From assembly GCA_045637205.1 (NCBI GenBank), contig JAZTYY010000082.1, forward strand, positions 8,822 through 72,821: a stretch of 64,000 bases of DNA. The letters are read 5' to 3'. Both the position numbers and the translations under genes were made by a program. The notes under the pieces are model-generated. The model was not told where the DNA came from and searched no databases. It saw only the letters and a list, made by a program, of their open reading frames with translations. Positions 12,905 through 50,489 of this stretch are shown one piece after another (the stretch's first letter is position 1; each line of letters begins with the position of its first letter). This DNA comes from Eubacteriales bacterium (GTDB lineage: Bacteria > Bacillota > Clostridia > Oscillospirales > CAG-272).

Positions 12905-14020
12905 TTATCGGTTTGGTTTCTTCATCTCTTTTAAATAAAACCTCGTCATTTTTTGACACATAATTTTTGAGTTTAGTTCTTTTTTATATCTCTTTATCGC
13001 ACCTTGGGAGCACTTTTGGTACAAATCCTCGTCTTTATAGAGTCTGATTATCGCATTTGCAAGGGCTTTTGCATTTCTTTGTGGAAAGAGAAGGCCGTTT
13101 TCTTCGTTTTTTACCATATAGGGATTGCCACCGATATTGCTGGCAACAGTTGGAATACCAAGGCTCATTCCCTCGGACAGTGAAAGGGAAGCCGTCTCAC
13201 TTTCATATGAGCAATTAACGTTGACGTCGGTTATATTAAAAATTGGCGCAACGTCATCGGCAAAGCCAAGAAATTTAACCGTATTATCAATCTTTAACTC
13301 GGTGGCATATTTTTTTAGATTTTGCTCAAAGCTGCCCGTCCCGACTATGAAAAAGCGCATATTTGGACATTGTTTTTTGCATATTTTTGCCGCCTCAATC
13401 AAGGTTTTGTGCCCTTTTATTTCTTCAAGCCTTGCAAAGTAGGAAATAACGAAATTCTCTTTATTTAAGCCGTATTTTTCTCGCAAATATGCCTTTTCGT
13501 CATCATTTATATAACGCAAAGGGGCACAACCGTTTATGATAGTTGTTATTCTTTTTTCGTCACATCCAAGCTCTATTAAGTGCCGTTTTGTGTATGGTGA
13601 AACTGCGATAATTGAGGTTGAAAGCACGTTATTTATCACTCTAAAAGACCATTTTGAAAATGAATTTTTCATATATTTTGGCACTTTTGGGGCACAATGA
13701 CGAGTGAAAACGCGACAGGTAATATTTAAAATTTTGGCGGCAATTCTTGAAGAAAGTGAGCCGTGCGAATGTACTGTGTCGGGGCGCACTTTTTTGATGA
13801 TTTTATAGGCTTCAAAGACGCCCTTTAGTGAAAAGGATTTATCAGCGCAACTGTTTAATTCAATTGTTTTGCAGGGGAGCTTTTTTGCTAACGCGCTACC
13901 ACTTGGAAGGGCAACGGTCACGTCAAATTTCTCGTTATCAAGCCCACGTATTTGTTCAAGCAGCAATTTACCTGCACCACCTATATTTGTGTCGGTTATA
14001 AAATGAAGTATTTTTATCAT
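12905..14020 (-). CDS. Glycosyltransferase family 4 (GT-B, RfaB-like)
   Basis: The N-terminus is MIKILHFITDTNIGGAG and the C-terminal E-x7-E region reads ESETASLSLSEGMSLGIPTVASNIGG. I chose the ATG at 14020 (AGGA RBS) over 14077. Confidence 0.8.
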   Translation of the reverse strand: MIKILHFITDTNIGGAGKLLLEQIRGLDNEKFDVTVALPSGSALAKKLPCKTIELNSCADKSFSLKGVFEAYKIIKKVRPDTVHSHGSLSSRIAAKILNITCRVFTRHCAPKVPKYMKNSFSKWSFRVINNVLSTSIIAVSPYTKRHLIELGCDEKRITTIINGCAPLRYINDDEKAYLREKYGLNKENFVISYFARLEEIKGHKTLIEAAKICKKQCPNMRFFIVGTGSFEQNLKKYATELKIDNTVKFLGFADDVAPIFNITDVNVNCSYESETASLSLSEGMSLGIPTVASNIGGNPYMVKNEENGLLFPQRNAKALANAIIRLYKDEDLYQKCSQGAIKRYKKELNSKIMCQKMTRFYLKEMKKPNR

Positions 14021-34726: not shown

Positions 34727-34840
34727 TACAATATATTATTATACCGACGATTTTAGTAACGCCTTGTGCGAAAAAAGAAAGCGTCTCGATGTGATTGTAG
34801 TTGGTGCATTTGACGAAATGAATAAATAGAGGTGAAAAAA

Positions 34841-35287
34841 ATGAAAATCATACATTATGAAGAACAATATAGGGATGACCTCATTTTTATGATTTTGCAA
34901 GCCAAGGACACGCTTGGGAGAAAGCCGAGTATAAATAAAGATTTATTGGATATAAAATCCAACTATTTTGACCGTGGAGATATGTTTTGGGTTGCGATTG
35001 ATGAAAATGACCGAGTAATCGGTAGTGTTGGCTATTCAAAAATTGAAAACACTAATGAGGCATTTGTGCATCGACTTTATGTGAAAGCATCTGAAAAGCA
35101 CAAGGGCATTGGCACAGCGCTGCTTGACGTTGCCGAAAACGAGATGATGAGGCAGGGAATAGTTGTGTCACTTGTGCATCTTGGAGAGCCCAAGGAACAG
35201 TGGTTTGAGTCATATTCGTTCTATCCCAAACATGGATATTGCGAATATGCGCCGAGATATATGAGAAAAAAATTAGAAAATAGGTGA
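34841..35287 (+). CDS. GNAT-family N-acetyltransferase
   Basis: The motif A region is LYVKASEKHKGIGTALLDVAE. I chose the ATG at 34841, 6 nt after a GAGGTG RBS. Confidence 0.8.
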   Translation: MKIIHYEEQYRDDLIFMILQAKDTLGRKPSINKDLLDIKSNYFDRGDMFWVAIDENDRVIGSVGYSKIENTNEAFVHRLYVKASEKHKGIGTALLDVAENEMMRQGIVVSLVHLGEPKEQWFESYSFYPKHGYCEYAPRYMRKKLENR

Positions 35288-35292
35288 AATAT

Positions 35293-35703
35293 ATGAAGAA
35301 AGTAAATAGATTTTTAGTTATGATTCTTGCATTTGCGTGTCCGTTTGCTTGTGCTGGTTGCTCAGATGCAGAAGAATCCACCCCCACTCCTATAAGCTAC
35401 GAGCAAATTAGTCAAAAGGAAGCAAAGACGCTTATGGATAGTGAAAGTGGATACGTTATTATTGATGCGAGAACACAGTCCGAATATGACGAGGGACATA
35501 TTCCCGGCGCCATACTCATTCCCGAATATGAAATCGCGAGCCGTGCCGAAAAGGAGCTTCCCGATAAGGATCAGTTGATACTTGTTTACTGCCGAAGCGG
35601 AAGAAGAAGCAAAATTGCGGCCGAGGAGCTCGTAAAGCTTGGATATACCAACGTCAAGGAATTTGGCGGCATCATCGATTGGGAGTATGAGATTGTTAAA
35701 TAA
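35293..35703 (+). CDS. Rhodanese-domain protein, probable lipoprotein
   Basis: The signal MKKVNRFLVMILAFACPFACAGCS has a Cys-containing lipobox-like end. The rhodanese active-site loop is YCRSGRRS. Confidence 0.8.
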   Translation: MKKVNRFLVMILAFACPFACAGCSDAEESTPTPISYEQISQKEAKTLMDSESGYVIIDARTQSEYDEGHIPGAILIPEYEIASRAEKELPDKDQLILVYCRSGRRSKIAAEELVKLGYTNVKEFGGIIDWEYEIVK

Positions 35704-35750
35704 CGTGCTTTGAATAAGTTAAATGTTTATGGCTGAGTTTTCATTAGATA

Positions 35751-35788
35751 AAAAAGAGGGTGAACGGTTACCGTTCACCCTCTAAAAA
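35751..35788 (-). terminator. Rho-independent terminator, best oriented for the SASP gene
   Basis: AGAGGGTGAACGG-tta-CCGTTCACCCTCT carries its U-tract on the minus strand. It may also slow plus-strand readthrough. Confidence 0.8.
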
Positions 35789-35856
35789 TTTATTCAATAA
35801 AATCAAACAAATTTTTTAACGCTTGCTAAACGGCAAGCTATACTCTCAAATCCCAA

Positions 35857-36060
35857 TTATCTGTTTGTGTTGGGGTTGTTTGCACCAAGAGAGTTTTCGT
35901 AGGACTCAACCATCTTCTTAACCATCTGACCGCCGATGGAACCTGCCTGACGGCTTGTGAGGTCACCATTGTAACCGTTGTTGTTAAGAGTTACACCTAC
36001 TTCGTTAGCTGCCTGCATCTTGAACTGTTCAAGTGCCTTTTTAGCTGACTTCTTTGCCAT
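35857..36060 (-). CDS. Alpha/beta-type small acid-soluble spore protein
   Basis: The sequence is MAKKSAKKALEQFKMQAANEVGVTLNNNGYNGDLTSRQAGSIGGQMVKKMVE, which is a SASP signature. I chose the ATG at 36060 (GGAG RBS) over 36072. Confidence 0.9.
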   Translation of the reverse strand: MAKKSAKKALEQFKMQAANEVGVTLNNNGYNGDLTSRQAGSIGGQMVKKMVESYENSLGANNPNTNR

Positions 36061-36245
36061 AACGTTCTCCATTCTGTCGCTTTTACGACTGATTTTTCCT
36101 TTTCTAGAAAGGAAATTAATCTATATTATCGAGAGGCGTTGCAATCGACTTTAGCAACGCACTCTCGCATTGCTCACACCGCTTGCTTCGCTTCTCTGGT
36201 ATTATTTTGGCGCAAATTTCAAAATATATTAATGGAAAAATTTGT
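36001..36245. repeat. Direct repeat copy A (SASP codons 1-20 plus upstream region, with an 83-bp extra segment at 36121-36203)
   Basis: 36001-36120 aligns with 46531-46650 with 3 mismatches by eye. 36204-36245 is identical to 46651-46692. Confidence 0.9.
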
Positions 36246-36310
36246 ATTGTTTGATAGTAAAACCATAAAACAGTAGCCATTCCATTAGTAGCAATGAATT
36301 GGATTTGTTA

Positions 36311-36340
36311 AAAGCGAGTATTTAGATGCTCGCTTTTTGT
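36311..36340. terminator. Hairpin with flanking A/T runs (insulator-like terminator upstream of the LRR gene promoter)
   Basis: The sequence is AAAAGCGAG-tatttagatg-CTCGCTTTTT. Confidence 0.4.
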
Positions 36341-36368
36341 CATATTTTACTCAATTTTGCCTAGACAC

Positions 36369-36397
36369 TTGAAATTGTGTGTTATATATGATATAAT
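36369..36397 (+). promoter_or_regulatory. Sigma-A type promoter of the giant LRR gene
   Basis: TTGAAA (36369-36374), 17-nt spacer, then TGaTATAAT with TATAAT at 36392-36397. Confidence 0.7.
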
Positions 36398-36458
36398 TAT
36401 AAAATAATATGATTTTTAAAGTTCACGTAACTTTTATTCTATATGCATTGGGAGGACT

Positions 36459-39400
36459 ATGATGAAAATCTCATTGAAATTAATCATTATTGCTTTGTGT
36501 AGTATTGCTGTGATTACCACGGCAACTATAATAATAGTTAATACGCTTGACAAGGGGGAAACTCCAAACGACGAGCCACATGTTCATGTGTTCGCAGATT
36601 GGACGCAGACTAAAGCACCCACTTGCCAAGCAAAGGGCGAAGACACTCGCACATGTACTTGTGGTGCTAAGGAAACAAGAGAAGTAGCAATTAATTCTAA
36701 TGCCCACATATTTAACCAAAGAGTTGTAGATGACAAATATATAAAATCTGAAGCAAACTACGATGATCCAGCATACTATTATTATTCTTGCGTATGTGGT
36801 GAAAAGGGAACTGAAAGCTTCCCGGAAGGCGAAGCAATACTTCCTCCCGTATCGTCAGTAACTTTAGATAAAAATGCTGCAACCATAAATCTTGGTGATA
36901 GCTTAACACTTGTTGCAACTATAACTCCCGGCAATGCTATTGATCAGGAGTTAACTTGGACAAGCTCCGATTTGTCAATAGCAAAGGTTACAAATGGAGT
37001 AGTGACAAGTTTGAAATCCGGAACAGTGACTATAACGGCATCAACAGCCAACGGAAAGAGCGCAAGCTGTACGGTAACGATTGAAAGTAATTACGTTATT
37101 AAATATGAATTGACAGAAGATTCTAGCTTTTATGTTGTAACCGGTATTGAGGGCAGAACAAACGTTCTTGAAATTCCGTTCTTGCATGACGGTCTTCGTG
37201 TAGTTGCTATCAAAGAAGGCGCATTCCAAAACAATTTGGATTTGGAGCAGCTTATTCTTCCCAACTCTATAGAATACATTTATAAAAATGCATTTGAAAA
37301 CTGCTCGAATTTGACAAGTGTTAATCTTCCTGACAGTTTGTTATTTATCGGTCAATCTGCATTTGAAGAATGTACATCATTGAAGGAAGTTCACATTCCT
37401 TATCTTGTTCATACTGTTGATACAAGGGCATTTTATCATTGTGTAGCCCTTGAGAACGTAACCGTTGCGGATGAAAAGGAACCAATGAACAAAAAGATAG
37501 GTTCTTATGCTTTCTCACAGTGTGAAAATCTTAAGACAGTTGTTGTTGGCGAAGGTATGGAGATCTTAGGTGATAACTCCTTCTCATACTGTACCTCGAT
37601 GGTAAGCTTTACTGTGGGAAATGGGCTTAAAACTATTTCCAATATGGCATTTGATAATTGCTTGTCATTGCTTAGATTTGATATGCCGGATACGGTAACT
37701 TATCTTGGAAATATGGCATTCCGTCACGCCGAAGCACTTAAAGAGGTAACCTTCTCGACAAATTTGAATGCTATTGGAAACGCGTGCTTCCAATATTGCA
37801 TTTCGCTTGATAACGTTGAGCTTCATGATGGCATTAGCCAAATCGGTGCATCCGGATTCAGCTTTTGTTCGGGTATGAAGACTCTTAAAATTCTTGGAAA
37901 TATAACGTCACTTGGTAGTTCGGCGTTCTATGAATGTACCGGGCTTACCGAAATCTATTATGCCTCCTCAATTAAGGGGGATCTCGGCCTTAACAACTAT
38001 ATATTCTATAATGCCGGCACAAAGGGAGATGGAATAGTACTTACTCTTGGACCCAATGCTTGCATTCGTGATAGACTTTTTGAACCGCAGGAGGATAAAA
38101 ACCGTCCTAAGTTGGTTAAAATTATAGTTGAAAATGAAGCAACTGAGGTTGATTATTTAGAAAACTATAATACCTTACCATACCTTACTGAAATTGAGCT
38201 TCCTGACAGTATCGTTGAAATTAAAAGTGGTATATTCCACAATACTGCATGGTGGAATGCTCAGCCCGAAGGTGCGGTATATATTGGAAATATCCTTTAT
38301 GGTTACAAGGGTGAGCTTAATGGTGAACTTACTATTTCCGATAACACGGTATGCATTGCCTTTGGTGCGCTTACCGGACAAAATCCCACATCTTTGAGAA
38401 TTCCTTTTGTTGGTGCAATACAAAATGGAACTGTAAACACTCATTTAGGTTATATTTTTGGTGCGGATTCACCCATTGATCAAAATGCAGCTTGTGTACC
38501 GCAATCACTGAACACTGTTGTAATAACAGGCGGAACCGATATACCGGCAAATGCATTCTATGATTGCGCATCTCTTACAAGCATAGAAATTCCAAGCAGT
38601 GTAACAAAAATTGGAGAATATGCATTTTATGGTTGCACAGGTCTTACAAGTATGGAGATACCAAAGAGTGTAACAAGTATTGGTAGTGGTGCATTTTGTA
38701 ATTGTACAGGTCTTACGAGCATAGAAATACCCAAGGATGTAACAAGCATTGGCGATGAAGCATTTATTGGTTGCAACAAACTAGAGAGCATTACGTTGCC
38801 ATTCGTAGGTAACGGTTCAGATAAAACTAATTTCGGTTATATTTTTGGCGCAGATTCATATCAGGATCAAGCCGACTATATTCCTGAAAGCTTGATATTG
38901 GTAACCGTTACGCGTTGCGAAAATCCTATTGACGAGCACGCTTTTGATAATTGTAATTTTGAAGTATTTATCGTTCATGATTTTGAAGAATGGATAGTAT
39001 CTCTCGCTCCCACGTGTCAGACAACGGGTAGCAAATATCACGTTTGCTCAATATGTGAGTACCGAGAAGATGAGATCATACCTATTGATCCCGACGCGCA
39101 CAAAAAAGACAGTGCTTGGAGCACGGATGAAAACAATCACTGGCACAAATGTCTCATTGAAGGATGCGATGAGAAGTTGGATCATATAGAGCACGATTGG
39201 GAACAATGGGTAATTACTCTCGATCCCACGTGTCAGACAACAGGTAGCAAATATCACGTTTGCTCAATATGTGAGTACCGAGAAGATGAGATCATACCCA
39301 TTGATCCCGACGCGCACAAAAAAGACAGTGAGTGGAGCACGGATGAAAACAATCACTGGTATGAATGTCATGTTGAAGGATGCGATGTCAAAGTAGATTT

Positions 39401-42400
39401 GGCATCACATACCTGGAATAGTGAAAATACTTGTATTTATTGTGATGAATATAAGGATCGAGGAGTTATATTTACATTCAATAGTGAATCATCCACATAT
39501 TCAATTACTGATTATACCGGTTCAGCCACCTCTGTAATTATTCCTTCAACATATAAGGGATATCCTGTGACTCAAATATCCAATAGCGCATTTGAGAATT
39601 GTACATCTATCACAAGCATAGAAATTCCAAGCAGTATAAAGAGCATTGGTTATAGTGTATTTTCTGGTTGCACAGGTCTTACCGGTGTAAATATAACAGA
39701 TATTGCCGCTTGGTGTAATATAGATTTTTACAATAGTGATGCTAATCCGCTATATTATGCTAAAAATCTTTACTTAAACGGTGAGCTTGTTACTGATCTT
39801 GTTATTCCCGAGGGTGTAACAAGCATTGGTGATTGTGCATTTATAAACTGCACATCTTTTGAAAGTGTAGAGATACCAAGCAGTGTAGCAAGCATTAGCG
39901 CTAGATCATTTGAGGGTTGTACAAATCTTACAACCATAGAAATATCAAACGGTGTTAAAAGTATTGATAATCGCGCATTTTATGGTTGCACAAATCTTGC
40001 AGGCATAGAAATACCAAGCAGTGTAATAAGTGTTGGAGAATATGCATTTGCAAATTGTACATCCCTTGAAAGTGTAAAAATATTGGATGGAGTAAAGAGC
40101 ATTGGAAGATCCGCATTTTTGCGTTGCACAGGTCTTACAAGCATAGAAATACCAAGCAGTGTAACAAGCATTGGATCAGGTGCATTCTATGATAGCACAG
40201 GACTTACCGACGTATATATATCTGATATTGCCGCGTGGTGTAATATAGATTTTGGTAATGAAACTGCCAATCCGCTATATTATGCTGAAAATCTTTACTT
40301 GAACGATGAGTTGGTTACTGAACTTGTTATTCCCGAGGGTGTGACAAGTATTGATAGCAATGCTTTTTATGGTTTCACAGGCATCACAAGTGTAGAGATC
40401 CCCAGCAGTGTAGAAAGCATTGGAAGTGATGTGTTCTATAACTGCGCAAATCTTACCGATATATATATATCTGATATTGCCGCGTGGTGTAATATAGATT
40501 TTAGCAACTATGCCGCAAATCCTTTATATGTTGCTAAAAATCTTTACTTGAATGATGAGTTGGTTACTGAACTTGTTATTCCCGAGGGTGTAACAAGTAT
40601 TAATAACTATGCATTTAAAGGTTGTTCAGGGCTTACAAGTATAGAGATCCCAAGTAGTGTAACAAGCATTGGCGATTCTGCATTTTCCGGTTGTTCAGGG
40701 CTTACAAGCATTGAGATCCCAAGTAGTGTAACAAGCATTGGAGATTATGCATTTTCCGGTTGTTCAGGGATTACAAGTATAGAAATACCAAAAAGTGTAG
40801 AAAGCATTGGTTATTGCGCATTTTATAGTTGCTACAAGCTTGAGAGCATTACCTTGCCTCTCGTTGGCAATGGATCAACCTCTACCCATTTTGGATATAT
40901 TTTTGGTGCAGATACATACGATAAAAATAACAATTTTATACCCTCGTCGCTTGAAACTGTTATAGTAATTGGCGACAGTGTGCCTTCACATGCATTCTAT
41001 GGTTGCTGGAATATTAGAAGTATAGAAATGCAAGATGATATAACAAGCATCGGTGATAGTGCATTTTCCGGATGTGAGAATCTATATAATGTCAAAATAC
41101 CAAACACAGTACAAAGCATTGGTGATGCTGCATTTTGGGATTGTCTCAGTCTTACAAGGATAAAGATTCCAAACGGTGTAACAAGCATTGGAGGATATGT
41201 ATTTGCTGGCTGTTCAAGACTTGCAACTATAGAAATTCCAAGCAGCGTCACGAGCATTGGAAATAATGCGTTTATTGGTTGCACAGGTCTTACCGGTGTA
41301 TATATAACCGATCTTGCCGCGTGGTGTAATATAGACTTTAACACATCTTGGGAAGCTAATCCCTTATACCGTGCTAATAATCTTTACTTGAACGGTGAGC
41401 TCGTTACTGATCTTGTAATTCCCGAGGGTGTAACAAGTATTGGAGATTGTGCATTCATTGGTTGCACATCTTTAGAAAGTGTAGAAATCCCAAGTAGTGT
41501 AACAAGCATTGGTTATTCTGCATTTTATGGTTGCAACAAACTCGAGAGCATTACAGTACCATTTGTAGGTAATGGTTCGGATGAAAGTCATTTCGGTTAT
41601 ATCTTCGGTGCGGAGACGTATAAAGATAATGCAACTTATGTACCCGTATCGCTGAAAACTGTTGTAATAACAGGCGGAACAGAAATAGCACAATATGCGT
41701 TCTACGATTGCTCTAATATTACAAGCATAGTAATACCAAGCAGTGTAACAAGTATTGGACAAAATGCATTCTATAAATGTACAGGTATTATCGACGTATA
41801 TATAAGCGATCTTGCTACGTGGTGTAATATAGATTTTTACGATAGTGGTGCTAATCCGCTATATGAAGCTAATAATCTTTACTTAAACGGTGAGCTTGTT
41901 ACTGATCTTGTTGTTCCCGAGGGTGTAACAAAAATTGGTTCTTGTACCTTTATTGGATATACACGCCTTAAAAGTGTAGTAATACCCAACGGCGTAACAA
42001 GTATTGAACATGGTGCATTTTTTGGCTGCACAAATCTTTCAAGCATAAATATTCCAAGCAGTGTAACAAAGATTGCTGAGCAGGCGTTCTTATATTGCAC
42101 AAATCTTAGCAAAGTATATATAACCGATCTTAAAGCGTGGTGTAATATAGATTGTGAATCTCCTCTTTTTAATCCTACTTCGGGAAAGCTTTATTTAAAC
42201 GGTGAGCTTGTTACTGATCTTGTTATTCCCGAGGGTGTAACAAAAATTGGAGAACATGCATTTTTTGGTTGCTCAAGTCTTACAAGCATAGTAATACCAA
42301 GCAGTGTAACAAGCATTGATTATGCTGCATTTTGGAATTGTACAGGTCTTACGAGCATAGAAATCCCAAGCAGTGTAACAAGCATTTCCAGTGGCGCATT

Positions 42401-45400
42401 TTTTGGTTGCTCAAGTCTTACAAGCATAGTAATACCAAGCGGTGTAACAAGCATTGGATATTATGCATTTTATGGTTGCACAAGTCTTACAAGCGTAGAA
42501 ATCCCAAGCAGTGTAACAAGCATTGGAAGTGGAGCATTTGACGGTTGTTCAAGTCTTACAAGCATAGAAATTCCAAGCGGTGTAACAAGCATTGGCGATT
42601 CTGCATTTTCCGGTTGCTCAAGTCTTACAAGCATAGAAATCCCAAGCGGTGTAACAAGCATTGGATATAATGCATTTTATGGTTGCGACAGTCTTGAAAG
42701 CATTACGTTACCTTTCGTTGGTGATGGTTCGTATGAAACTCATTTCGGTTACTTCTTTGGCGCGGAGGGGTATTTTGGCAATGCAGAATACGTGCCTGAA
42801 TCGCTGAAAACTGTTGTAATAACAGGCGGAACAGAAATAGCACAATATGCGTTCTACGGTTGCTCAAGTCTTACAAGCATAGTAATACCTGACAGTGTAA
42901 CAAGCATTGGAGATTATGCATTTGAGGGTTGCAACAGCCTTGAAAGCATTACGTTGCCTTTCGTTGGTGATGGTTCGTATTACACTAATTTTGGCTACAT
43001 ATTTGGTGCATATGGATATACCTATAATTCAAGTCACGTTCCCGTATCGCTGAAAACTGTTGTAATAACAGGCGGAACAAAAATAGCAGGATATGCGTTC
43101 TACGATTGCTCTAATATTACAAGCATAGTAATACCAAGCAGTGTAACGAGTATTGGAGATTATGCATTTTATAATTGCACAAGTCTTGAAAGTATAGAAA
43201 TACCAAGTGGTGTAACGAGCATTGGAGATAATGCATTCTATAATTGCAGATATCTTACCTACGTATATATAACTGATCTTGCAGCATGGTTTAATGTACG
43301 TTTTTCCAATTATTATGCTAATCCCATGTATTATGCTACAAATCTTTACTTAAACGGTGAGCTTGTTACTGATTTTGTTATTCCTGACGGTGTAACAAGT
43401 ATTAACAGCTATGCATTTTATAATTGGACAAGTCTTAAAAGCATAGAGATTCCAAGCACTGTAACAAGCATTGGCAATAGCGCATTTCGCGGTTGCTCAA
43501 GTCTTACAAGCATAGAAATCCCAAGCGGTGTAACAAGCATTGGAGATTCTGCATTTACCTATTGTTCGGCTCTTACAAGCATAGAAATCCCAAGCAGTGT
43601 AACAAGCATTGGAGCTTATGCATTTTCCTATTGTTCGGCTCTTACAAGCATAGAAATCCCAAGCAGTGTAACAAGTATTGGAGATTATGCATTTTATTAT
43701 TGCACAGGTCTTACGAGCATAGAGATCCCAAGTGGTGTAACAAGCATTGGATTAAGTGCATTTGCAGACTGCACAAGTCTTGCAAGTATAGAGATTCCAA
43801 GCGGTGTAACAAGCATTGGAGCTTATGCATTTTATAATTGCAGAAGTCTTACAAGCATAGAAATCCCAAGCGGTGTAACAAGCATTGGAATTGGAGCATT
43901 TCAATATTGTAGAAGTCTTACAAGCATAGAAATCCCAAGCAGTGTAACAAGCATTGACCATAGCGCATTTCGCGATTGTTCAAGTCTTACAAGCATAGTA
44001 ATACCAAGCGGTGTAAAAAGCATTGGAAGTGAAGCGTTTTTTCGTTGCACAGGTCTTACAAGTATAGTAATACCAAGCAGTGTAACAAGCATTGGCAATA
44101 GCGCATTTTCCGGTTGCACAAGTCTTGCAAGTATAGAGATTCCAAGCGGTGTAACAAGCATTGGAAGTGGAGCATTTTCTTATTGCACAAGTCTTGCAAG
44201 TATAGAGGTTGATGAAAACAATCGATCTTATAAATCAATAGATGGTAATCTTTATAGAAAAGACGGAAAAACCTTGATATGCTATGCAATAGGTAAGCAA
44301 GATACTTCATTTATCATTCCCGACGGTGTAACAAGCATTGGAGATTATGCATTTTATGGTTGCTTAAGTCTTACAAGCATAGTAATACCAGACGGTGTAA
44401 CAAGCATTGGAGCTTATGCATTTTCCGGTTGCTCAAGTCTTACAAGCATAGTAATACCGGACAGTGTAACAAGCATTGGCAATAGCGCATTTTCCGTTTG
44501 CTCAAGTCTTACAAGCATAGTAATACCAGACGGTGTAACAAGCATTGGATGGTATGCATTTTCCAATTGTTCAAGTCTTACAAGCATAGAGATCCCAAGC
44601 AGTGTAACAAGTATTGAAAAGTATGCATTTGCAGGCTGCACAAGTCTTGAAAGCATTACGTTGCCATTCGTAGGTAATGGTTCAGATGGAACTCTTTTCG
44701 GTTATATCTTCGGTGCGGACTGGTATTCTGACAATGCAGAACATGTGCCTGAATCGCTGAAAACTGTTGTAATAACAGGCGGAACAAAAATAGCAGGATA
44801 TGCGTTCTACGATTGCTCTAATATTACAAGCATAGAAATCCCAAGCAGTGTAACGAGTATTGGAGATTATGCATTTGAAGGCTGCACAAATCTTGCAAGT
44901 ATAGAGATTCCAAGCGGTGTAACAAGCATTGGAGATTATGCATTTGATGGTTGCTTAAGTCTTACAAGCATAGTAATACCAGACGGAGTAATAAGCATTG
45001 GAAGATATGCATTTAGTGATTGCAGAAGTCTTACAAGCATAGTAATACCAAGCAGTGTAACAAGAATTGGAGAATATGCATTTGAAGATTGCACAGGTCT
45101 TGAAAGCATTACATTACCATTTGTAGGTAATGGTTCGGATGCAAGTCATTTCGGTTACATTTTCGGTGCGGATAGCTATTCTGGCAATGCAGAATACGTG
45201 CCTGAATCGCTGAAAACTGTTGTAATAACAGGCGGAACGGAAATAGCAGGATATGCGTTCTGCGGTTGCTCTAATATTACAAGCATAGAAATCCCAAGCA
45301 GTGTAACAAGCATTGGAGCATATGCATTTGAAGATTCAGGTCTTACAAGTATAGAAATACCTAATTCTGTGACAACTATTGGTAGTGGTGCATTTTATGG

Positions 45401-45719
45401 TTGCTCAAGTCTTACAAGTATAGAGATTCCAAGCAGTGTAACAAGCATTGGCTATAGCGTATTTCGCGGTTGTTCAAGTCTTACAAGCATAGAAATCCCA
45501 AGCGGTGTAACGAGTATTGGATATTATGCATTTGAAGGTTGCACAAGTCTTGCAAGTATAGAGATTCCAAGCGGTGTAACAAGCATTGGATATTATGCAT
45601 TTTATGGTTGCTCAAACCTCACAATTTATTGTGAAGCAACGTCCAAACCCTCCGAATGGGGTGCTTATTGGAATCCTTCAAATAGACCGGTTGTTTGGGG
45701 ATATACTGGCGAGAATTAA
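36459..45719 (+). CDS. Giant BspA-type leucine-rich-repeat (LRR_5) surface protein with an N-terminal membrane anchor, Cys/His modules and a Big_2 domain
   Basis: 3086 aa. The N-terminal TM is KLIIIALCSIAVITTATIIIV. The Big_2 domain spans aa 131-208 (VTLDKNAATINLGDSLTLVATITPGNA..VTITAS). Many dozens of ~23-aa units follow, such as SLTSIEIPSSVTSIGDYAFxGC. The C-terminus is IYCEATSKPSEWGAYWNPSNRPVVWGY. Confidence 0.85.
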   Translation: MMKISLKLIIIALCSIAVITTATIIIVNTLDKGETPNDEPHVHVFADWTQTKAPTCQAKGEDTRTCTCGAKETREVAINSNAHIFNQRVVDDKYIKSEANYDDPAYYYYSCVCGEKGTESFPEGEAILPPVSSVTLDKNAATINLGDSLTLVATITPGNAIDQELTWTSSDLSIAKVTNGVVTSLKSGTVTITASTANGKSASCTVTIESNYVIKYELTEDSSFYVVTGIEGRTNVLEIPFLHDGLRVVAIKEGAFQNNLDLEQLILPNSIEYIYKNAFENCSNLTSVNLPDSLLFIGQSAFEECTSLKEVHIPYLVHTVDTRAFYHCVALENVTVADEKEPMNKKIGSYAFSQCENLKTVVVGEGMEILGDNSFSYCTSMVSFTVGNGLKTISNMAFDNCLSLLRFDMPDTVTYLGNMAFRHAEALKEVTFSTNLNAIGNACFQYCISLDNVELHDGISQIGASGFSFCSGMKTLKILGNITSLGSSAFYECTGLTEIYYASSIKGDLGLNNYIFYNAGTKGDGIVLTLGPNACIRDRLFEPQEDKNRPKLVKIIVENEATEVDYLENYNTLPYLTEIELPDSIVEIKSGIFHNTAWWNAQPEGAVYIGNILYGYKGELNGELTISDNTVCIAFGALTGQNPTSLRIPFVGAIQNGTVNTHLGYIFGADSPIDQNAACVPQSLNTVVITGGTDIPANAFYDCASLTSIEIPSSVTKIGEYAFYGCTGLTSMEIPKSVTSIGSGAFCNCTGLTSIEIPKDVTSIGDEAFIGCNKLESITLPFVGNGSDKTNFGYIFGADSYQDQADYIPESLILVTVTRCENPIDEHAFDNCNFEVFIVHDFEEWIVSLAPTCQTTGSKYHVCSICEYREDEIIPIDPDAHKKDSAWSTDENNHWHKCLIEGCDEKLDHIEHDWEQWVITLDPTCQTTGSKYHVCSICEYREDEIIPIDPDAHKKDSEWSTDENNHWYECHVEGCDVKVDLASHTWNSENTCIYCDEYKDRGVIFTFNSESSTYSITDYTGSATSVIIPSTYKGYPVTQISNSAFENCTSITSIEIPSSIKSIGYSVFSGCTGLTGVNITDIAAWCNIDFYNSDANPLYYAKNLYLNGELVTDLVIPEGVTSIGDCAFINCTSFESVEIPSSVASISARSFEGCTNLTTIEISNGVKSIDNRAFYGCTNLAGIEIPSSVISVGEYAFANCTSLESVKILDGVKSIGRSAFLRCTGLTSIEIPSSVTSIGSGAFYDSTGLTDVYISDIAAWCNIDFGNETANPLYYAENLYLNDELVTELVIPEGVTSIDSNAFYGFTGITSVEIPSSVESIGSDVFYNCANLTDIYISDIAAWCNIDFSNYAANPLYVAKNLYLNDELVTELVIPEGVTSINNYAFKGCSGLTSIEIPSSVTSIGDSAFSGCSGLTSIEIPSSVTSIGDYAFSGCSGITSIEIPKSVESIGYCAFYSCYKLESITLPLVGNGSTSTHFGYIFGADTYDKNNNFIPSSLETVIVIGDSVPSHAFYGCWNIRSIEMQDDITSIGDSAFSGCENLYNVKIPNTVQSIGDAAFWDCLSLTRIKIPNGVTSIGGYVFAGCSRLATIEIPSSVTSIGNNAFIGCTGLTGVYITDLAAWCNIDFNTSWEANPLYRANNLYLNGELVTDLVIPEGVTSIGDCAFIGCTSLESVEIPSSVTSIGYSAFYGCNKLESITVPFVGNGSDESHFGYIFGAETYKDNATYVPVSLKTVVITGGTEIAQYAFYDCSNITSIVIPSSVTSIGQNAFYKCTGIIDVYISDLATWCNIDFYDSGANPLYEANNLYLNGELVTDLVVPEGVTKIGSCTFIGYTRLKSVVIPNGVTSIEHGAFFGCTNLSSINIPSSVTKIAEQAFLYCTNLSKVYITDLKAWCNIDCESPLFNPTSGKLYLNGELVTDLVIPEGVTKIGEHAFFGCSSLTSIVIPSSVTSIDYAAFWNCTGLTSIEIPSSVTSISSGAFFGCSSLTSIVIPSGVTSIGYYAFYGCTSLTSVEIPSSVTSIGSGAFDGCSSLTSIEIPSGVTSIGDSAFSGCSSLTSIEIPSGVTSIGYNAFYGCDSLESITLPFVGDGSYETHFGYFFGAEGYFGNAEYVPESLKTVVITGGTEIAQYAFYGCSSLTSIVIPDSVTSIGDYAFEGCNSLESITLPFVGDGSYYTNFGYIFGAYGYTYNSSHVPVSLKTVVITGGTKIAGYAFYDCSNITSIVIPSSVTSIGDYAFYNCTSLESIEIPSGVTSIGDNAFYNCRYLTYVYITDLAAWFNVRFSNYYANPMYYATNLYLNGELVTDFVIPDGVTSINSYAFYNWTSLKSIEIPSTVTSIGNSAFRGCSSLTSIEIPSGVTSIGDSAFTYCSALTSIEIPSSVTSIGAYAFSYCSALTSIEIPSSVTSIGDYAFYYCTGLTSIEIPSGVTSIGLSAFADCTSLASIEIPSGVTSIGAYAFYNCRSLTSIEIPSGVTSIGIGAFQYCRSLTSIEIPSSVTSIDHSAFRDCSSLTSIVIPSGVKSIGSEAFFRCTGLTSIVIPSSVTSIGNSAFSGCTSLASIEIPSGVTSIGSGAFSYCTSLASIEVDENNRSYKSIDGNLYRKDGKTLICYAIGKQDTSFIIPDGVTSIGDYAFYGCLSLTSIVIPDGVTSIGAYAFSGCSSLTSIVIPDSVTSIGNSAFSVCSSLTSIVIPDGVTSIGWYAFSNCSSLTSIEIPSSVTSIEKYAFAGCTSLESITLPFVGNGSDGTLFGYIFGADWYSDNAEHVPESLKTVVITGGTKIAGYAFYDCSNITSIEIPSSVTSIGDYAFEGCTNLASIEIPSGVTSIGDYAFDGCLSLTSIVIPDGVISIGRYAFSDCRSLTSIVIPSSVTRIGEYAFEDCTGLESITLPFVGNGSDASHFGYIFGADSYSGNAEYVPESLKTVVITGGTEIAGYAFCGCSNITSIEIPSSVTSIGAYAFEDSGLTSIEIPNSVTTIGSGAFYGCSSLTSIEIPSSVTSIGYSVFRGCSSLTSIEIPSGVTSIGYYAFEGCTSLASIEIPSGVTSIGYYAFYGCSNLTIYCEATSKPSEWGAYWNPSNRPVVWGYTGEN
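38985..39416 (+). repeat. In-frame 216-bp tandem duplication inside the LRR gene
   Basis: 39009-39143 differs from 39225-39359 at only about 4 positions by eye. Both encode PTCQTTGSKYHVCSICEYREDEIIPIDPDAHKKDS.WSTDENNHW. Confidence 0.9.
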
Positions 45720-45733
45720 TCAAATAAAATCTT

Positions 45734-45761
45734 AAAGGGTGCGAGAAATCGCACCCTTTTT
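45734..45761 (+). terminator. Rho-independent terminator after the LRR gene
   Basis: GGGTGCGA-gaaa-TCGCACCC is followed by TTTTT. Confidence 0.9.
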
Positions 45762-46047
45762 GAATACAAAATAAAACAAAAATTTCCATTCATATTTGTT
45801 TTTCGATTGAGCAAAACAATAACAAAATGAGGTTAATTGCGTAGCCGGGATATATGATTGCAATATTATTGTTTAGTCTTTTGGATAAACCTGATAACGA
45901 GGGCGCGTGGTATAAGTTACTTGAGAATACCATAATTATCCTAATATAATGATAATAGGGTAAAATACCCTAATACGAACGCCAAAGAGCGTCTATCTTT
46001 TACGATAGGCGCTCTTTTGTTTTTAAAAATATTTTGGAGGTGAACTT

Positions 46048-46432
46048 ATGGCAGCTTTAGTATCTATCGGCGGTTTCGATTTTCCCGAGCCGTCAACGTA
46101 TAATGCAACCACATCTACAATTGTTGATTCGGGACGTAATGTTCAAGGCAAAGTTGTGGGTGCTATTGTAAGACACGATGTAGCCAAAATAGAACTCTCT
46201 TGGAAGTATCTCACCGCTTATGAGTGGGCGCAAATATTATCCCTATTTACAAGTAGCTTCTTACATTTCTAAATCAGGCGACAAACTCTTATACTATGTG
46301 GTAGGTGCTGTTAATGCACTTAAAAGTAGGCGTTTGGATATCAACAAAGGCTTCATATACCATCTACTGTACCAATGGCGAAATTGCCCAAGACACATAT
46401 TACGACAAATAACAAAAACCCCCGAAACCTAA
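46048..46432 (+). pseudogene. Decayed phage-like gene (N-terminus resembles small phage tail-associated proteins); apparently frameshifted
   Basis: The 74-aa ORF MAALVSIGGFDFPEPSTYNATTSTIVDSGRNVQGKVVGAIVRHDVAKIELSWKYLTAYEWAQIL stops early. Plausible continuations (..SKSGDKLLYYVVGA..) lie in another frame. The family assignment is from memory only. Confidence 0.3.
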
Positions 46433-46450
46433 ATTTCGGGGGGCTTTCTT
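46414..46450 (+). terminator. Rho-independent terminator
   Basis: CCCCCGAAA-cctaaa-TTTCGGGGG is followed by GCTTTCTT. Confidence 0.7.
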
Positions 46451-46515
46451 AATTCATGCTTATGTGCGTGAAGCCTTGATATATAAGGGTTTGTTGGGTG
46501 TTAAAATTCACTACA

Positions 46516-46590
46516 TCATAGAACATCGCATTCGTTAGCTGCCTGCATTTTGAACTGTTCAAGTGCCTTTTTAGCTGACTTCTTTGCCAT
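46516..46590 (-). pseudogene. Truncated second copy of the SASP gene 5' end (24 codons, then a stop)
   Basis: It translates to MAKKSAKKALEQFKMQAANE-CDVL*. The first 20 codons match the intact gene at 36001-36060, and the homology ends at 46530/46531. Confidence 0.85.
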
Positions 46591-46692
46591 AACGTTCTCC
46601 ATTCTGTCGCTTTTACGACTAATTTTTCCTTTTGTAGAAAGGAAATTAATATTTTGGCGCAAATTTCAAAATATATTAATGGAAAAATTTGT
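46531..46692. repeat. Direct repeat copy B (SASP 5' end plus upstream region, lacking the 83-bp segment)
   Basis: See copy A. The two copies bracket about 10.4 kb. Confidence 0.9.
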
Positions 46693-46710
46693 TATGTTTT
46701 TTACTTTTCC

Positions 46711-46772: not shown

Positions 46773-47456
46773 ATGGATAATCAAGTAACGTTTTGTAAAA
46801 ACTGTGGGCGCGAAATGATTAAAGGTGCAGCCTTTTGTACTTATTGCGGTGCTAAGGTAGAAGAAGAGGCTCCCACTCCCTCATACGAACAATTTTATGC
46901 TTATCCCCAAGGTGAGACTACGGCTCAAAGCTATGCTCAGTCACCGTATGCGCCACCAACTCCACCTCGCAAGAGATCTAAAGCTTGGCTTTGGATAATT
47001 ATTGCTATTTCGGCAGCTATCATTACAGGACTTATTATTTGGGGAGTTGTGGGATTTTTTAATCCCGATTCCGATTTAACACCTGTAAGTGAGCCTGCAA
47101 GTGGAACTATCCTTTCTGGCTCAAGTGGATATGGCTCCGAAATTACTATTGTGGCTACTGAAACCGAATCCGTTGTTGTAAAATTGAAAAACAGAAGTGG
47201 AAGAGAGGTTCTCTCATTTTACGTAAGAGCAGGTGATACTGTAACGATTGACGTTCCTGATGAATATATGTACGTATATTTTGCTACGGGTAAGACCTGG
47301 TATGGTGAAGAGGAAATGTTCGGTCAAAGAACTAAATATTATATGGAAGAAGATCTAACCAACTTTGCTTATTACACTTGGGAATATCAAATGGGCTCTT
47401 TCTTCTTGACTGATTTGAACGTTGTACAAATTGAGAAAGAAGAGTTCTTTGAATAA
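46773..47456 (+). CDS. Zinc-ribbon domain membrane protein; function unknown
   Basis: 227 aa. The N-terminal zinc ribbon is CKNCGREMIKGAAFCTYCG. A Pro-rich linker and a TM (AWLWIIIAISAAIITGLIIWGVVGFF) follow, then an extracytoplasmic domain. Confidence 0.7.
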   Translation: MDNQVTFCKNCGREMIKGAAFCTYCGAKVEEEAPTPSYEQFYAYPQGETTAQSYAQSPYAPPTPPRKRSKAWLWIIIAISAAIITGLIIWGVVGFFNPDSDLTPVSEPASGTILSGSSGYGSEITIVATETESVVVKLKNRSGREVLSFYVRAGDTVTIDVPDEYMYVYFATGKTWYGEEEMFGQRTKYYMEEDLTNFAYYTWEYQMGSFFLTDLNVVQIEKEEFFE

Positions 47457-47468
47457 AATATAGAAATA

Positions 47469-47501
47469 CAAGCGCTTGTCCGTGCGACAAGCGCTTTTTT
47501 T
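47469..47501 (+). terminator. Rho-independent terminator
   Basis: AAGCGCTTGTC-cgtgc-GACAAGCGCTT is followed by TTTTTT. Confidence 0.9.
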
Positions 47502-47512
47502 GTAAAAAGCTA

Positions 47513-47541
47513 TTGACAAAATGAACAAAAAGTGATAATAT
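47513..47541 (+). promoter_or_regulatory. Sigma-A type promoter of the alaS leader
   Basis: TTGACA (47513-47518), 17-nt spacer, then TGaTAATAT with the -10 hexamer at 47536-47541. Confidence 0.7.
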
Positions 47542-47547
47542 ATCCGT

Positions 47548-47810
47548 GTATGAAAACTGTGATGGGAATAAGTAGTGTTTCTTTGTTCGTTCAGAGAGTC
47601 GGCGGTTGGTGTGAGCCGATGGGACGGGGAATATGAAGCTATCCCTGAGTTGCTTCCGAAAGGAAAGTCGGGTGCGCCCGTTAAAGCGCGGGACTGACTT
47701 TGTCAGTTGTTGAGGTCATTTTCGTGAGAGAATGACGAAATAAGGTGGTATCGCGAGCGCTCTCGTCCTTATGCTTTTGCATTCGGTCGGTGGCGTTTAT
47801 TTTTTTGCCA
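47548..47810 (+). promoter_or_regulatory. T-box leader (alanine specifier) controlling alaS
   Basis: Stem I elements are AGAGAG (47593-47598) and GGTGTGA (47608-47614). The specifier-loop context is GAA-GCT-A, with GCT at 47638-47640. The T-box motif GAAATAAGGTGGTATCGCGAG lies at 47737-47757, and its UGGU would match an A73 discriminator. An imperfect terminator hairpin at 47757-47795 is followed by TTTATTTTTTT. Confidence 0.85.
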
Positions 47811-47858
47811 CAAACACAGTTGAAAATTATTTTACATAAACCGAAAGGAAAAATTAAA

Positions 47859-50489
47859 ATGAAATGGACATCACTTAATGATTTGAGAGAAAGCTATCTT
47901 GCTTTCTTTGAGAAAAAGGGACATTTAAGACTTAAATCTTTCCCCCTTGTTCCCATCAATGACAAATCTTTGCTTCTTATTAACTCCGGTATGGCTCCTA
48001 TGAAGAAATACTTCACAGGTGAAGAAGAGCCTCCGAGAAATCGCGTTTGCACATGCCAAAAGTGCATCAGAACTCCCGACCTTGAAAGAGTTGGTCACAC
48101 AGCTCGTCACGGTACATTCTTTGAAATGCTTGGTAACTTCTCATTCGGTGACTACTTTAAGGTAGAAGCTATCGAATGGTGCTGGGAATTCCTCACAAAA
48201 GAGCTTGAAATTCCCGAAAATCTTCTTTGGCCCTCAATTTATGAGGAGGATGACGAATCCTACGACATTTGGGTAAACAAGATTGGTGTTGACCCCAACC
48301 ACGTTGTTCGTATGGGTAAGGCTGACAACTTCTGGGAGCACGGCACAGGTCCTTGTGGTCCTTGTTCCGAAATCTACTTCGACCGTGGCGAAAAGTACGG
48401 TTGTGGTGACCCAAACTGTAAGCCCGGTTGCGAATGCGACAGATACATGGAAATTTGGAACAACGTATTCTCACAGTTTAACAATATGGGCGATGGCACA
48501 TATGAAGAGCTCGCACAGAAGAACATCGACACAGGTATGGGTCTTGAACGTCTTGCTTGCGTAATGCAGGGCGTTGACAATATGTTTGAGGTTGACTCAA
48601 TCCGTAAGATTATTGACAAGGTTTGCGAAATCTGTGGCAAGACATACGGAAACGATGCTAATAATGACATCTCCATCCGTGTTATTACTGACCACACAAG
48701 AAGCGCAATGTTTATGATCGCTGACGGTGTTATTCCTTCAAATGAGGGACGTGGCTACGTTCTTCGTAGAATCATCCGTCGTGCTTGCCGTCACGGAAAG
48801 CTCCTTGGTATCAAGGGCGCGTTCCTTGTTGATATGGTTAACGTTGCAATTAACGAAAGCTGCGCGGCTTATCCCGAGCTTTCTGAAAAGGGTGACTACA
48901 TCCGTAAGGTTCTTTCTATGGAAGAAGAAAGATTCGATGCTACAATCGACGCAGGTCTTTCGATCCTTTCCGACCTCATTCGTGGCGCAATTAAAGAAAA
49001 CAGCGACACAATCTCCGGTGAAGAAGTATTCAAGCTTTACGATACATTCGGTTTCCCCATCGACTTGACACGTGAAATTGCTGAAGAAAATCACCTCAAG
49101 ATTGACGAAGAAGCATTTAAGGCGCTCATGCTCGACCAGAGAACAAGAGCAAGAGAGGCAAGAGCTAATATCAGTGGTTGGTCCGATAATTCCAAGAATA
49201 TTCTTGCCGACCTTCCCAAAACTGAATTTACAGGTTATACAGATTATAGAAGTGAAGCAAAGGTTATTGCAATCCTTGTTAACGACGAGAGCGTTGACAC
49301 AGTAAACGAGGGTGATTGCACGGTTGTGCTTGACAGAACTCCTTTCTACGGAGAGGGCGGTGGTCAGGTAGGTGACTCCGGTACAATCTATGGTGAAAAC
49401 TCACTTCTTACAGTTTACGATACAAAGAAAACTGACGGTGTTTATATCCATCTTTGCACAGTTGCAAACGGTACCTTGAACGTTGGTGACACAGTGACAG
49501 CTGATATCACAGATGCGCGCCGTGATGCTATTAAGAGAAACCACTCCGCAGCGCACTTGCTTCAGGCGGCTCTTCGTTCTGTTCTTGGAACACATGTTGA
49601 GCAGGCAGGATCTTACGTTGACGAAAACGTATGCCGTTTCGACTTTACACACTTCGTTGCTCTTACTGAAAATGAGATCAAGCAGGTTGAAGCACTTGTA
49701 AATGCTCATATTCTTGCAGCTAACGAAATCGTAACAAGAGAAATGGATATCGAAAGCGCAAGAAAAGAGGGCGCTATGGCGCTCTTCGGTGAAAAGTACG
49801 GCAAGACCGTTCGCGTTGTTAAGATGGGTAGCTTCTCAACCGAGCTTTGCGGCGGTACACATTGTGATAATACAGGCAAGATCGGTCTTTTCAAGGTTAT
49901 CAGTGAATCTTCCGTTGCTGCAGGTGTAAGAAGAATTGAAGCTGTAACAGGTCTTGGTGTTCTTCACGTTCTTGCAACAAGAGAAGCGCTTATCAATCAG
50001 GCGGCTGCAGAACTTAAAGTTCCCAACGCAAACGACCTTGCAAAGAGAGCAAATGCAGTTATGGGTGAAATCGCATCTCTCAAGAAGGAAATCGAAGCGC
50101 TCAATAATAAGATTGCAGCTTCCAAGCTTGATGGTGTTCTCAATTCTGCAAAGGCAATTAAGAGTGTTAAACTCATCGCATTCAATGCCGAGGGTATGGA
50201 CGTTGATAGCGCAAGAACACTTGGTGATAAGATTAAGGCAGAGCATTCTGACACAGTTGCAGTTCTTGCTGTAAATGCTAACGGAAAGCTCAACTTCATC
50301 GCAGTTGCAGGCAAGGACGCAGTTGCAAACGGAGTTCACGCAGGCAAGCTCGTTGGCGCTGTAGCGGCTGTAACAGGGGGAAAGGGCGGTGGACGTCCTG
50401 ACTCTGCTATGGCAGGTGGCATTGATGTAACCAAGATTGACGAAGCTTTGACAAAAGCTGAAGAAATTGTTGAAACAATGTCAAAATAA
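47859..50489 (+). CDS. alaS: Alanine--tRNA ligase
   Basis: The N-terminus is MKWTSLNDLRESYLAFFEKKGH. The class II core, the editing-domain HSAAHLL motif and a C-terminal DHHA1 region (GGKGGGRPDSAMAGG) are present. I chose the ATG at 47859 because the ORF-track start at 47745 lies inside the T-box. Confidence 0.95.
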   Translation: MKWTSLNDLRESYLAFFEKKGHLRLKSFPLVPINDKSLLLINSGMAPMKKYFTGEEEPPRNRVCTCQKCIRTPDLERVGHTARHGTFFEMLGNFSFGDYFKVEAIEWCWEFLTKELEIPENLLWPSIYEEDDESYDIWVNKIGVDPNHVVRMGKADNFWEHGTGPCGPCSEIYFDRGEKYGCGDPNCKPGCECDRYMEIWNNVFSQFNNMGDGTYEELAQKNIDTGMGLERLACVMQGVDNMFEVDSIRKIIDKVCEICGKTYGNDANNDISIRVITDHTRSAMFMIADGVIPSNEGRGYVLRRIIRRACRHGKLLGIKGAFLVDMVNVAINESCAAYPELSEKGDYIRKVLSMEEERFDATIDAGLSILSDLIRGAIKENSDTISGEEVFKLYDTFGFPIDLTREIAEENHLKIDEEAFKALMLDQRTRAREARANISGWSDNSKNILADLPKTEFTGYTDYRSEAKVIAILVNDESVDTVNEGDCTVVLDRTPFYGEGGGQVGDSGTIYGENSLLTVYDTKKTDGVYIHLCTVANGTLNVGDTVTADITDARRDAIKRNHSAAHLLQAALRSVLGTHVEQAGSYVDENVCRFDFTHFVALTENEIKQVEALVNAHILAANEIVTREMDIESARKEGAMALFGEKYGKTVRVVKMGSFSTELCGGTHCDNTGKIGLFKVISESSVAAGVRRIEAVTGLGVLHVLATREALINQAAAELKVPNANDLAKRANAVMGEIASLKKEIEALNNKIAASKLDGVLNSAKAIKSVKLIAFNAEGMDVDSARTLGDKIKAEHSDTVAVLAVNANGKLNFIAVAGKDAVANGVHAGKLVGAVAAVTGGKGGGRPDSAMAGGIDVTKIDEALTKAEEIVETMSK

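Follow-up and report, generated by a model that had tools for sequence, protein, structure and literature searches.

The skin element of Bacillus subtilis, whose recombinase is SpoIVCA, is inserted in sigK. To our knowledge, the well-studied phage-like elements in sporulation genes all lie in genes of the mother cell, from which they can be excised at no cost to the germ line. The closest described systems include elements that use a large serine recombinase (LSR) and have their attB within the coding sequence of a sporulation gene, which integration splits, for example SPbeta (SprA/SprB) in spsM; the gerE 'gin' and yabG 'yin' elements also reside in sporulation genes, and defective remnants are common (PMC5499854, PMC5595907, PMC10747680). 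Here we analysed a window of 64,000 nt (contig JAZTYY010000082.1, positions 8,822 to 72,821 of the forward strand) from the genome of a Eubacteriales bacterium, GCA_045637205.1 (1.59 Mb, 89 contigs). In this window, a 10.4-kb block is bracketed by two direct copies of the 5′ end of ssp, the gene of an alpha/beta-type small acid-soluble spore protein (SASP). Comparison of sequences makes it likely that this block is the decayed arm of an LSR temperate phage that had entered ssp, and that the repeat is the scar of a later rebuilding of the gene.

Like SPbeta, skin, gin and yin, the parent of this block would be an LSR element with its attB in the coding region of a sporulation gene. The targets of those elements are mother-cell genes, and they are excised in a terminally differentiated mother cell, whereas ssp is expressed in the forespore. 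Elements of the skin/SPbeta type interrupt the sole functional copy of their target and carry the recombinase. In contrast, the remnant described here no longer interrupts the gene, ssp is intact, the recombinase is absent, and the gene would have been rebuilt by partial duplication. LSR prophage scars in sporulation genes are already known; what is unusual here is that the target is a forespore gene, that att occurs in two polarities and that the target would have been rebuilt in three species. We found no report in the literature naming ssp as a phage attB.

Direct repeat, intact ssp gene and stump

A repeat search of the window confirmed the direct repeat that a sequence-only reading had noticed around the block. 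The segments 36001-36120 and 46531-46650 are 98% identical (3 mismatches), and a second pair, somewhat longer than had been seen by eye, joins 36200-36252 with 46647-46699 at 94% identity. Copy A carries 83 extra nucleotides (36121-36203) that have no counterpart in copy B, and beyond copies A and B no further copy of the repeat segment was found in this genome. The earlier count of two copies stands, although a third, inverted and diverged piece (copy C; Table 1), with ~70% identity to both, had been missed. Copy A had been placed correctly in an intact minus-strand SASP gene: the protein matches PF00269 over its full length (91.9 bits; Pfam gathering cut-off 22), and this is the sole intact ssp of the genome. 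Copy B is a 20-codon stump as described, with the reading frame MAKKSAKKALEQFKMQAANE followed by divergence.

We observed that copy A is continuous and syntenic with the GNAT-rhodanese-ssp order of relatives, with 89% identity over 34829-36167 to the locus L020, and that its middle upstream part (U-mid) contains a CGATAATATAGA box conserved across the genus. Copy B is derived relative to all relatives, having a synonymous change of AAG to AAA besides the loss of the 83-nt U-mid. These changes fit the decay of a stump without selection, and we read copy B as a decaying pseudogene that adjoins the native right flank.

The break of homology had been placed at codon 21, which is near the site. The exact break is the dinucleotide TC at 36002-36003/46532-46533, the GA of codon E20 on the ssp strand, and the match between 36001 and 46531 is a chance identity. 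Left of the stump lies a conserved sequence of ~95 nt, here called RE (46434-46530). Upstream of it, the supposed single frameshifted phage-like open reading frame (ORF) turned out to be phage-derived as suspected, although it is made of two pieces, a DUF6711 stub (46048-46272) and the 3′ stub of a leucine-rich repeat (LRR) gene (46305-46412).

Related phages and the polarity of their attP sites

An exact search of IMG/VR with the core of RE returned one contig, the complete 62,247-nt genome of a phage with direct terminal repeats (G235). Of the two RE copies in this phage, one is 89.7% identical to the window RE over 117 nt and the other 83.9% over 112 nt. On the late-gene strand, G235 reads terminator, RE and CATAGCAC-TACTGAC-GA-AGTAGGC-GTGCTATG, so that its attP is a perfect inverted pair of arms flanking a 16-nt core. 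The stop codon of a 538-aa LSR with Resolvase, Recombinase and Zn_ribbon_recom domains lies ~20 nt beyond attP on the other strand. The attP core ACGAAGTAGGCGT is identical over 13 nt to ssp codons 19-23 of G013, another species of the same genus, and matches the ssp of the present genome over 10 nt. In support of the earlier proposal of a phage-derived element that targeted ssp, G235 is thus a complete relative that has both an LSR gene and an attP matching ssp. Another phage contig (L049, from an Acutalibacteraceae metagenome-assembled genome) has the same layout. In phiC31, Bxb1 and A118, the quasi-palindromic attP adjoins int; the LSR gene adjoins attP in L049 and in six further contigs as it does in G235. 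A second IMG/VR match (L041) has no RE and was dropped. The RE pattern gave no matches in metagenome contigs, and a 19-nt arm pattern searched in genome contigs gave mostly chance matches in Bacteroidota, plus G018, G013 and L049.

The gene order of the window was then compared with that of G235. On one strand, the phage carries the tape-measure gene (TMP), a 2154-aa LRR_5 giant, a 428-aa cohesin-like protein and DUF6711 (136 aa), followed by tail genes, endolysin, small cargo genes, two tandem units of terminator plus RE, and attP. Such add-on cargo genes beside attP are called morons here. In the window, an LRR_5 giant of 3086 aa (LRR3086) is followed by the DUF6711 stub, the LRR 3′ stub, a terminator, RE and half an att site. 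The window is therefore colinear with, and on the same strand as, the right arm of G235. A search for prophage homologs of the ORF at 46048 had been suggested, and we found one in G235 (DUF6711; 12955-13438), with 93% amino-acid and 82% DNA identity. The position of the LRR 3′ stub equals that of a complete 368-aa LRR_5 gene in G018, another species of the genus.

Traces of such phages were also observed elsewhere in this genome. Contig C78 (22243-29500) holds a TMP 3′ stub whose end, ..MGNEVYSY*, is the C-terminus of the phage TMP, then a terminator, an LRR_5 giant of 2190 aa that contains CxxC repeat modules, and an N-terminal DUF6711 stub with 95% DNA identity to 45928-46236 of the window. 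This content indicates that such LRR giants travel in this phage module. The C78 tail-module fragment adjoins a phosphofructokinase gene. On contig C28 (14704-14814), a 37-aa C-terminal stub of TerL (large terminase), 97% identical to that of G235, is a further trace of the same phage lineage. No LSR homolog was found in the genome, in line with the earlier view that the integrase has been lost. The arm motif occurs once in the genome, and the second (attL-type) junction is absent from the window. A missing recombinase and a missing second junction are expected for a remnant.

Next, we compared the ssp locus among 22 species representatives of the genus, 17 of which have ssp matches. RE junctions were present in three of the 22. 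The other two species, G018 and G013, show a mirror structure of intact ssp, ~2.1 kb of cargo, terminator, RE and an ssp 3′ stump, which begins at the codon where the 5′ stump of the window stops. RE of the window is 89% identical to that of G018, where the cargo is a 368-aa LRR_5 lipoprotein. The cargo beside RE in G013 encodes a DUF551-LRR_5-TIR protein (L013 4385-5923; TIR_2/ThsB-like), possibly a phage-borne defence or abortive-infection gene. In all three species RE is joined to the same point of ssp, to the 3′ half in G018 and G013 and to the inverted 5′ half in the window, which indicates site-specific recombination. In an alignment of six sites (A1), sequence is conserved from the terminator through the arm and diverges after the arm plus 7 nt. 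In all three genomes with an RE junction (that of the window, G018 and G013), the ssp homology begins at position 7-8 past the arm, where the central dinucleotide is predicted. A palindromic CG was rejected as the crossover because the symmetry of attP and the G018 junction place it at GA.

These findings bear on the alternative given by the sequence-only reading, in which two ssp paralogs duplicated or recombined independently of any phage and the stump is a second ssp destroyed by an unrelated insertion. Genes of the ssp family are multicopy in many spore-formers, and tandem duplication can give a direct repeat of a gene end. However, two intact copies occur in none of the 17 genomes of the genus that have ssp, and the break falls at the very centre of an LSR half-site conserved in phages. 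Two other species, moreover, have RE joined at this dinucleotide to the opposite half of ssp. We regard this alternative as extremely improbable.

The central dinucleotide sets the orientation of integration in LSR systems (PMC3556126). We compared the attP sites of eight phage-form contigs whose LSRs are 81-100% identical to that of G235. All eight have common arms and geometry, CATAG(C/A)AC plus 7 nt plus GA/TC. Read from int, the dinucleotide is TC in three (G235, L049 and L076) and GA in five, and L076 has, between homologous flanks, a core that is the L072-type core in reverse complement. Both core polarities thus occur naturally in this phage family. With its RE side, a TC-class phage would join the ssp 3′ half, as in G013 and G018, and a GA-class phage would join the inverted 5′ half, as in the window. 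The RE-side inner half-site of G013, GGCAGAC, matches AGCAGAC of L049 at 6/7 positions, and that of the window, ATCGCAT, matches GTCGTAT (L072) and AGCGTAT (L074) of the GA class at 5/7. The two polarities of the attP core would explain the two orientations of the chromosomal scars. The junctions lie at the central dinucleotide, which alone sets polarity in phiC31, Bxb1 and A118 (PMC3556126); unlike in those systems, both polarities of the predicted crossover are found in one phage family, and scars in both orientations. Homology to attP, the geometry of the junction, colinearity with the phage and the mirror cases are direct observations; the junction in the window is very likely the scar of an LSR phage in ssp.

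The attP regions themselves vary. In G235 (L032 95-545), two and a half units of 'terminator + RE + half-site + GA' are stacked at attP, and in L067 and L068, whose integrases are identical, a unit of ~330 nt between two RE copies differs. These differences look like the gain and loss of cassettes at attP.

Proposed rebuilding of ssp and possible origin of the LRR block

How the intact gene and the stump came to stand at opposite ends of the block was explained in the sequence-only reading by a replacement copy: attP would have carried ssp codons 1-20 and ~190 nt of upstream DNA, and a single integration would have produced both. The final topology (intact gene, element, stump) is typical of such elements. 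It also recalls the tRNA/tmRNA islands, where tyrosine integrases restore the 3′ end of the target, in having an intact gene on one side, a stump of the gene end on the other side and a direct repeat. In those islands, however, the repeat is an att identity block carried by the element, whereas the intact phages here have no such block; the repeat in the window measures ~170 + 83 nt and includes promoter DNA, unlike the island repeats. Only 13 nt of the attP sites of G235 and L049 are common to ssp, beyond which each site passes into the integrase arm of the inverted repeat, and none of the eight intact phage contigs so far has an ssp segment beyond the core. Integration of this type would truncate the SASP, the predicted attL product ending in ..ANEVGVL*. 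An ssp-like P′ arm would make attP a hybrid site, which LSRs are not known to use for integration. Moreover, neither an integrase nor other P′-side phage DNA follows copy A. A replacement copy is therefore very unlikely. Since the phages have no ssp beyond the core, the repeat of 170 (+83) nt does not represent an att identity block, and a second step is needed.

We propose the following course of events. The ssp codons 19-23 would serve as attB for LSR integration of a temperate siphophage family of this gut Clostridia genus. A phage inserted in ssp would have joined its late-gene end, RE plus the P half-site, to the ssp 5′ half at 46532-46533. In such a lysogen, attL is predicted to read integrase arm + 7 nt + TC + GTTAGCTGCC, or GCAGCTAAC + GA + inner + arm. 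Later the integrase-proximal side would have been lost with int, the early and head genes and most tail genes, ~40-50 kb judged from the 62-kb relative. Simultaneously, a second ssp 5′ half with its upstream region would have been placed beside the 3′ half, giving a working ssp (copy A), and the original 5′ half (copy B) would have been left stranded on the remaining phage arm. The resulting structure would be [ssp 3′ half][5′ half + U, copy A], the joint 36252/36253, [right arm...RE][5′ half + U, copy B][native flank].

Two routes to this rebuilding are the most likely. One is a tandem duplication of the right arm and flank, followed by LSR excision between the integrase-side junction and the proximal RE-side junction. 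The other is Campbell-type homologous integration of a circular or transducing fragment carrying the arm and flank. The locus resembles lambda dgal/dbio Campbell integration, or prophage-end duplications, in its order of flank, element and flank with one novel joint (36252|36253). This likeness is a model for the second step only, and tandem duplication plus LSR excision would give the same structure. We infer the order of events and the mechanism of rebuilding, which may differ between species. The two ssp 3′ copies of G018 are ~97% alike on our reading of the sequence.

Several points weigh against this explanation. The assignment of ssp as attB draws on three one-sided junctions and on core identity. 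Among the 22 genomes of the genus, 400 of the family and 8 metagenome phage contigs, none showed a full lysogen in which ssp is split (attL plus attR). The two ssp 3′ copies of G013 differ strongly in their last ~45 nt, which suggests that foreign DNA fits better than in-situ duplication, so that one rebuilding mechanism may not fit all three cases. Upstream of LRR3086 there is no TMP stub, and LRR3086 is only 39-42% identical, over 1260-1420 aa, to the 2154-aa giant of G235. Finally, we could not account for copy C by a single integration and a single rearrangement; a further recombination is required.

Copy C also concerns the origin of the LRR block. The stretch made up of the final 89 nt of the LRR gene, its terminator and copy C is 96% identical to G011, in which it runs on into U-mid and ssp. 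This match indicates that the LRR block once stood directly upstream of ssp in another lineage, and the block probably reached the phage or the remnant by recombination. All that G011 retains of an LRR3086-like gene (L014 5072-5243) is its final ~100 nt, which are joined to a GNAT-like ORF, itself truncated, and lie directly upstream of ssp; this fused remnant is a deletion scar at the same hotspot.

It could therefore be that only ~0.7 kb (45825-46530) is a phage remnant and that LRR3086 is a chromosomal neighbour of ssp caught between the repeats by local rearrangement. The continuity with ssp in G011 is what this explanation would predict; a giant gene stands directly upstream of ssp in L020 and L021 as well, and the missing TMP stub and the GC content point the same way. 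A GC plot had been suggested as a check; neither GC (0.37-0.40 in the segment) nor skew sets the segment apart from its flanks. On the other hand, if LRR3086 stood colinear upstream of an ssp, no polarity of integration would yield LRR, DUF6711 and RE on one strand and then an inverted 5′ half, and the inversion models failed. An inversion between the inverted distal upstream (U-distal) copies A and C was rejected, as these are only ~70% identical and show no chimerism. A single inversion in the lysogen of a host with the order 'LRR, then U, then ssp' predicts a copy B without its own U-distal, yet this is present. The ~70% identity of copy C to copies A and B moreover places its origin in another lineage, the gene order agrees with phage G235 and the C78 fragment, and the block lies wholly inside the repeats. 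We consider a remnant of only ~0.7 kb unlikely.

Under the explanation we prefer, a decayed phage arm, LRR3086 is read as cargo of the phage tail module. That it came with the phage is fairly probable, and we do not put it higher mainly because of copy C. Its match to PF13306 is well above cut-off (1914 bits, 23 stretches). Cryptic ('grounded') prophage remnants are known to retain morons (PMC6379469). The block resembles them in that int and structural genes are lost and a cargo gene with its own promoter and terminator, presumably expressed, is retained (PMC6379469). Unlike in those remnants, the cargo is a 3086-aa BspA-type LRR protein, and its homolog in the intact relative lies within the tail module, between TMP and DUF6711. 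Giant BspA-type LRR surface proteins of gut Clostridia could thus come from tail-module cargo left by prophage decay. Within the LRR gene, a 216-bp in-frame tandem duplication at 38969-39398 (87% over 214 nt) is set in a dense 69-nt LRR periodicity.

The ssp locus in relatives and the surrounding features

The earlier reading was to fail if all relatives carried the same arrangement and had no empty site; among the relatives of other species this is not the case. L020 has the order GNAT-rhodanese-ssp-(giant)-AlaRS (alanyl-tRNA synthetase) with a single ssp and without the repeat, and in G003 a single ssp directly adjoins the T-box of AlaRS. AlaRS stands beside ssp in G003, G002, L020 and L021. 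The surroundings of ssp differ in almost every species, which fits a locus hit repeatedly by phages. None of 10 metagenome contigs encoding an identical SASP carries RE; these contigs belong to other species, with 88-92% DNA identity. No intact alpha/beta SASP gene is present in G019 and G007, whose genomes are 97-99% complete, and in G007 a 20-codon piece of the ssp 3′ end is all that is left; some species of the genus may thus have lost the gene.

A close LSR homolog was not found in the genus (best 41%), and six look-ups of LSR homologs gave phage-form contigs only, with no lysogen junction. Among the 400 family genomes, LSR homologs were only 52-55% identical, and these are integrated in a GH18 gene (L070 and L071, of another genus, g72). 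This GH18 target looks like the spore cortex hydrolase YaaH/SleL, so a related integrase may target a different sporulation gene.

We lean, if only slightly, towards a wider reading. The coding region of the host's single alpha/beta SASP gene would be a regular attB for LSR phages of gut Acutalibacteraceae-like Clostridia, lysogeny would remove the spore's main DNA-protecting protein unless the phage leaves, prophages would enter in either orientation, and at least three host species would have independently rebuilt ssp by partial duplication with the LRR cargo kept. A bolder and speculative extension is that the phage leaves the forespore genome at the time of sporulation, which would couple phage carriage to the protection of spore DNA. 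LSR phages on a forespore gene raise the question whether their hosts form SASP-less, damage-sensitive spores, are cured at sporulation or escape by rebuilding the gene. The phages and their targets also supply naturally occurring LSR attP/attB pairs of either core polarity, open to direct assay.

Table 1. Features of the ssp locus and the 10.4-kb block (positions in the window)
Feature	Position	Strand	Basis or remark
Intact alpha/beta-type SASP gene (ssp), 67 aa	35857-36060	minus	Pfam PF00269, E 2.4e-26
Predicted attB, intact, within ssp: ACCTACT-TC-GTTAGCT	35995-36010		Central dinucleotide 36002-36003; core compared with phage attP
Repeat copy A: ssp codons 1-20, ribosome-binding site (RBS), full upstream region	36001-36252	minus	
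Parts of copy A	U-prox 36061-36120; U-mid 36121-36203; U-distal 36204-36252		
Left novel joint 36252|36253, then short ORF end, terminator hairpin (~36311-36338), LRR promoter/RBS	36253-36458	plus	
BspA-type LRR_5 surface protein, 3086 aa (LRR3086), signal peptide, Big_2 domain	36459-45719	plus	Pfam LRR_5, 23 stretches
Intrinsic terminator of the LRR gene	45735-45762	plus	Sequence; conserved with G011
Copy C: inverted, diverged piece of the distal ssp upstream region	45767-45824	plus	Just past the LRR terminator
Promoter region and N-terminal stub (ORF 46048-46272, 74 aa) of DUF6711/phrog_1194 phage tail-module gene	45928-46294	plus	Pfam/PHROG hits
3′ stub (35 codons, ..YTIYCTNGEIAQDTYYDK*) of small LRR_5 moron gene	46305-46412	plus	
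Terminator hairpin (46407-46454) and RE, ending in putative integrase-binding arm CTACATCATAGAAC (46511-46524)	46407-46524	plus	
RE-side inner half-site ATCGCAT and central dinucleotide TC	46525-46533	plus	Predicted recombination junction
Repeat copy B: ssp 5′ stump (codons 1-20, 46531-46590), U-prox and U-distal, without U-mid	46531-46699	minus	
Right chromosomal flank: zinc-ribbon membrane protein 46773-47456; T-box leader 47550-47773; alanyl-tRNA synthetase 47745-50489	46773-50489	plus	

In annotations of this region, the stump and the small ORFs between 45.8 and 46.7 kb are better marked as prophage and pseudogene remnants. The stretch 36253-36458 has no homolog elsewhere in this genome or in the fetched loci, and exact-protein look-ups of the zinc-ribbon and rhodanese proteins gave no record. 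An Rfam scan of 35.6-47.8 kb (E<=1) gave the AlaRS T-box and otherwise weak chance hits only, with no family for RE. The T-box leader upstream of the AlaRS gene scores 124.8 bits. The GTG-start ORF listed from 47745 overlaps this leader, and AlaRS calls in relatives are 876 aa long; the true AlaRS start probably lies further downstream than 47745.

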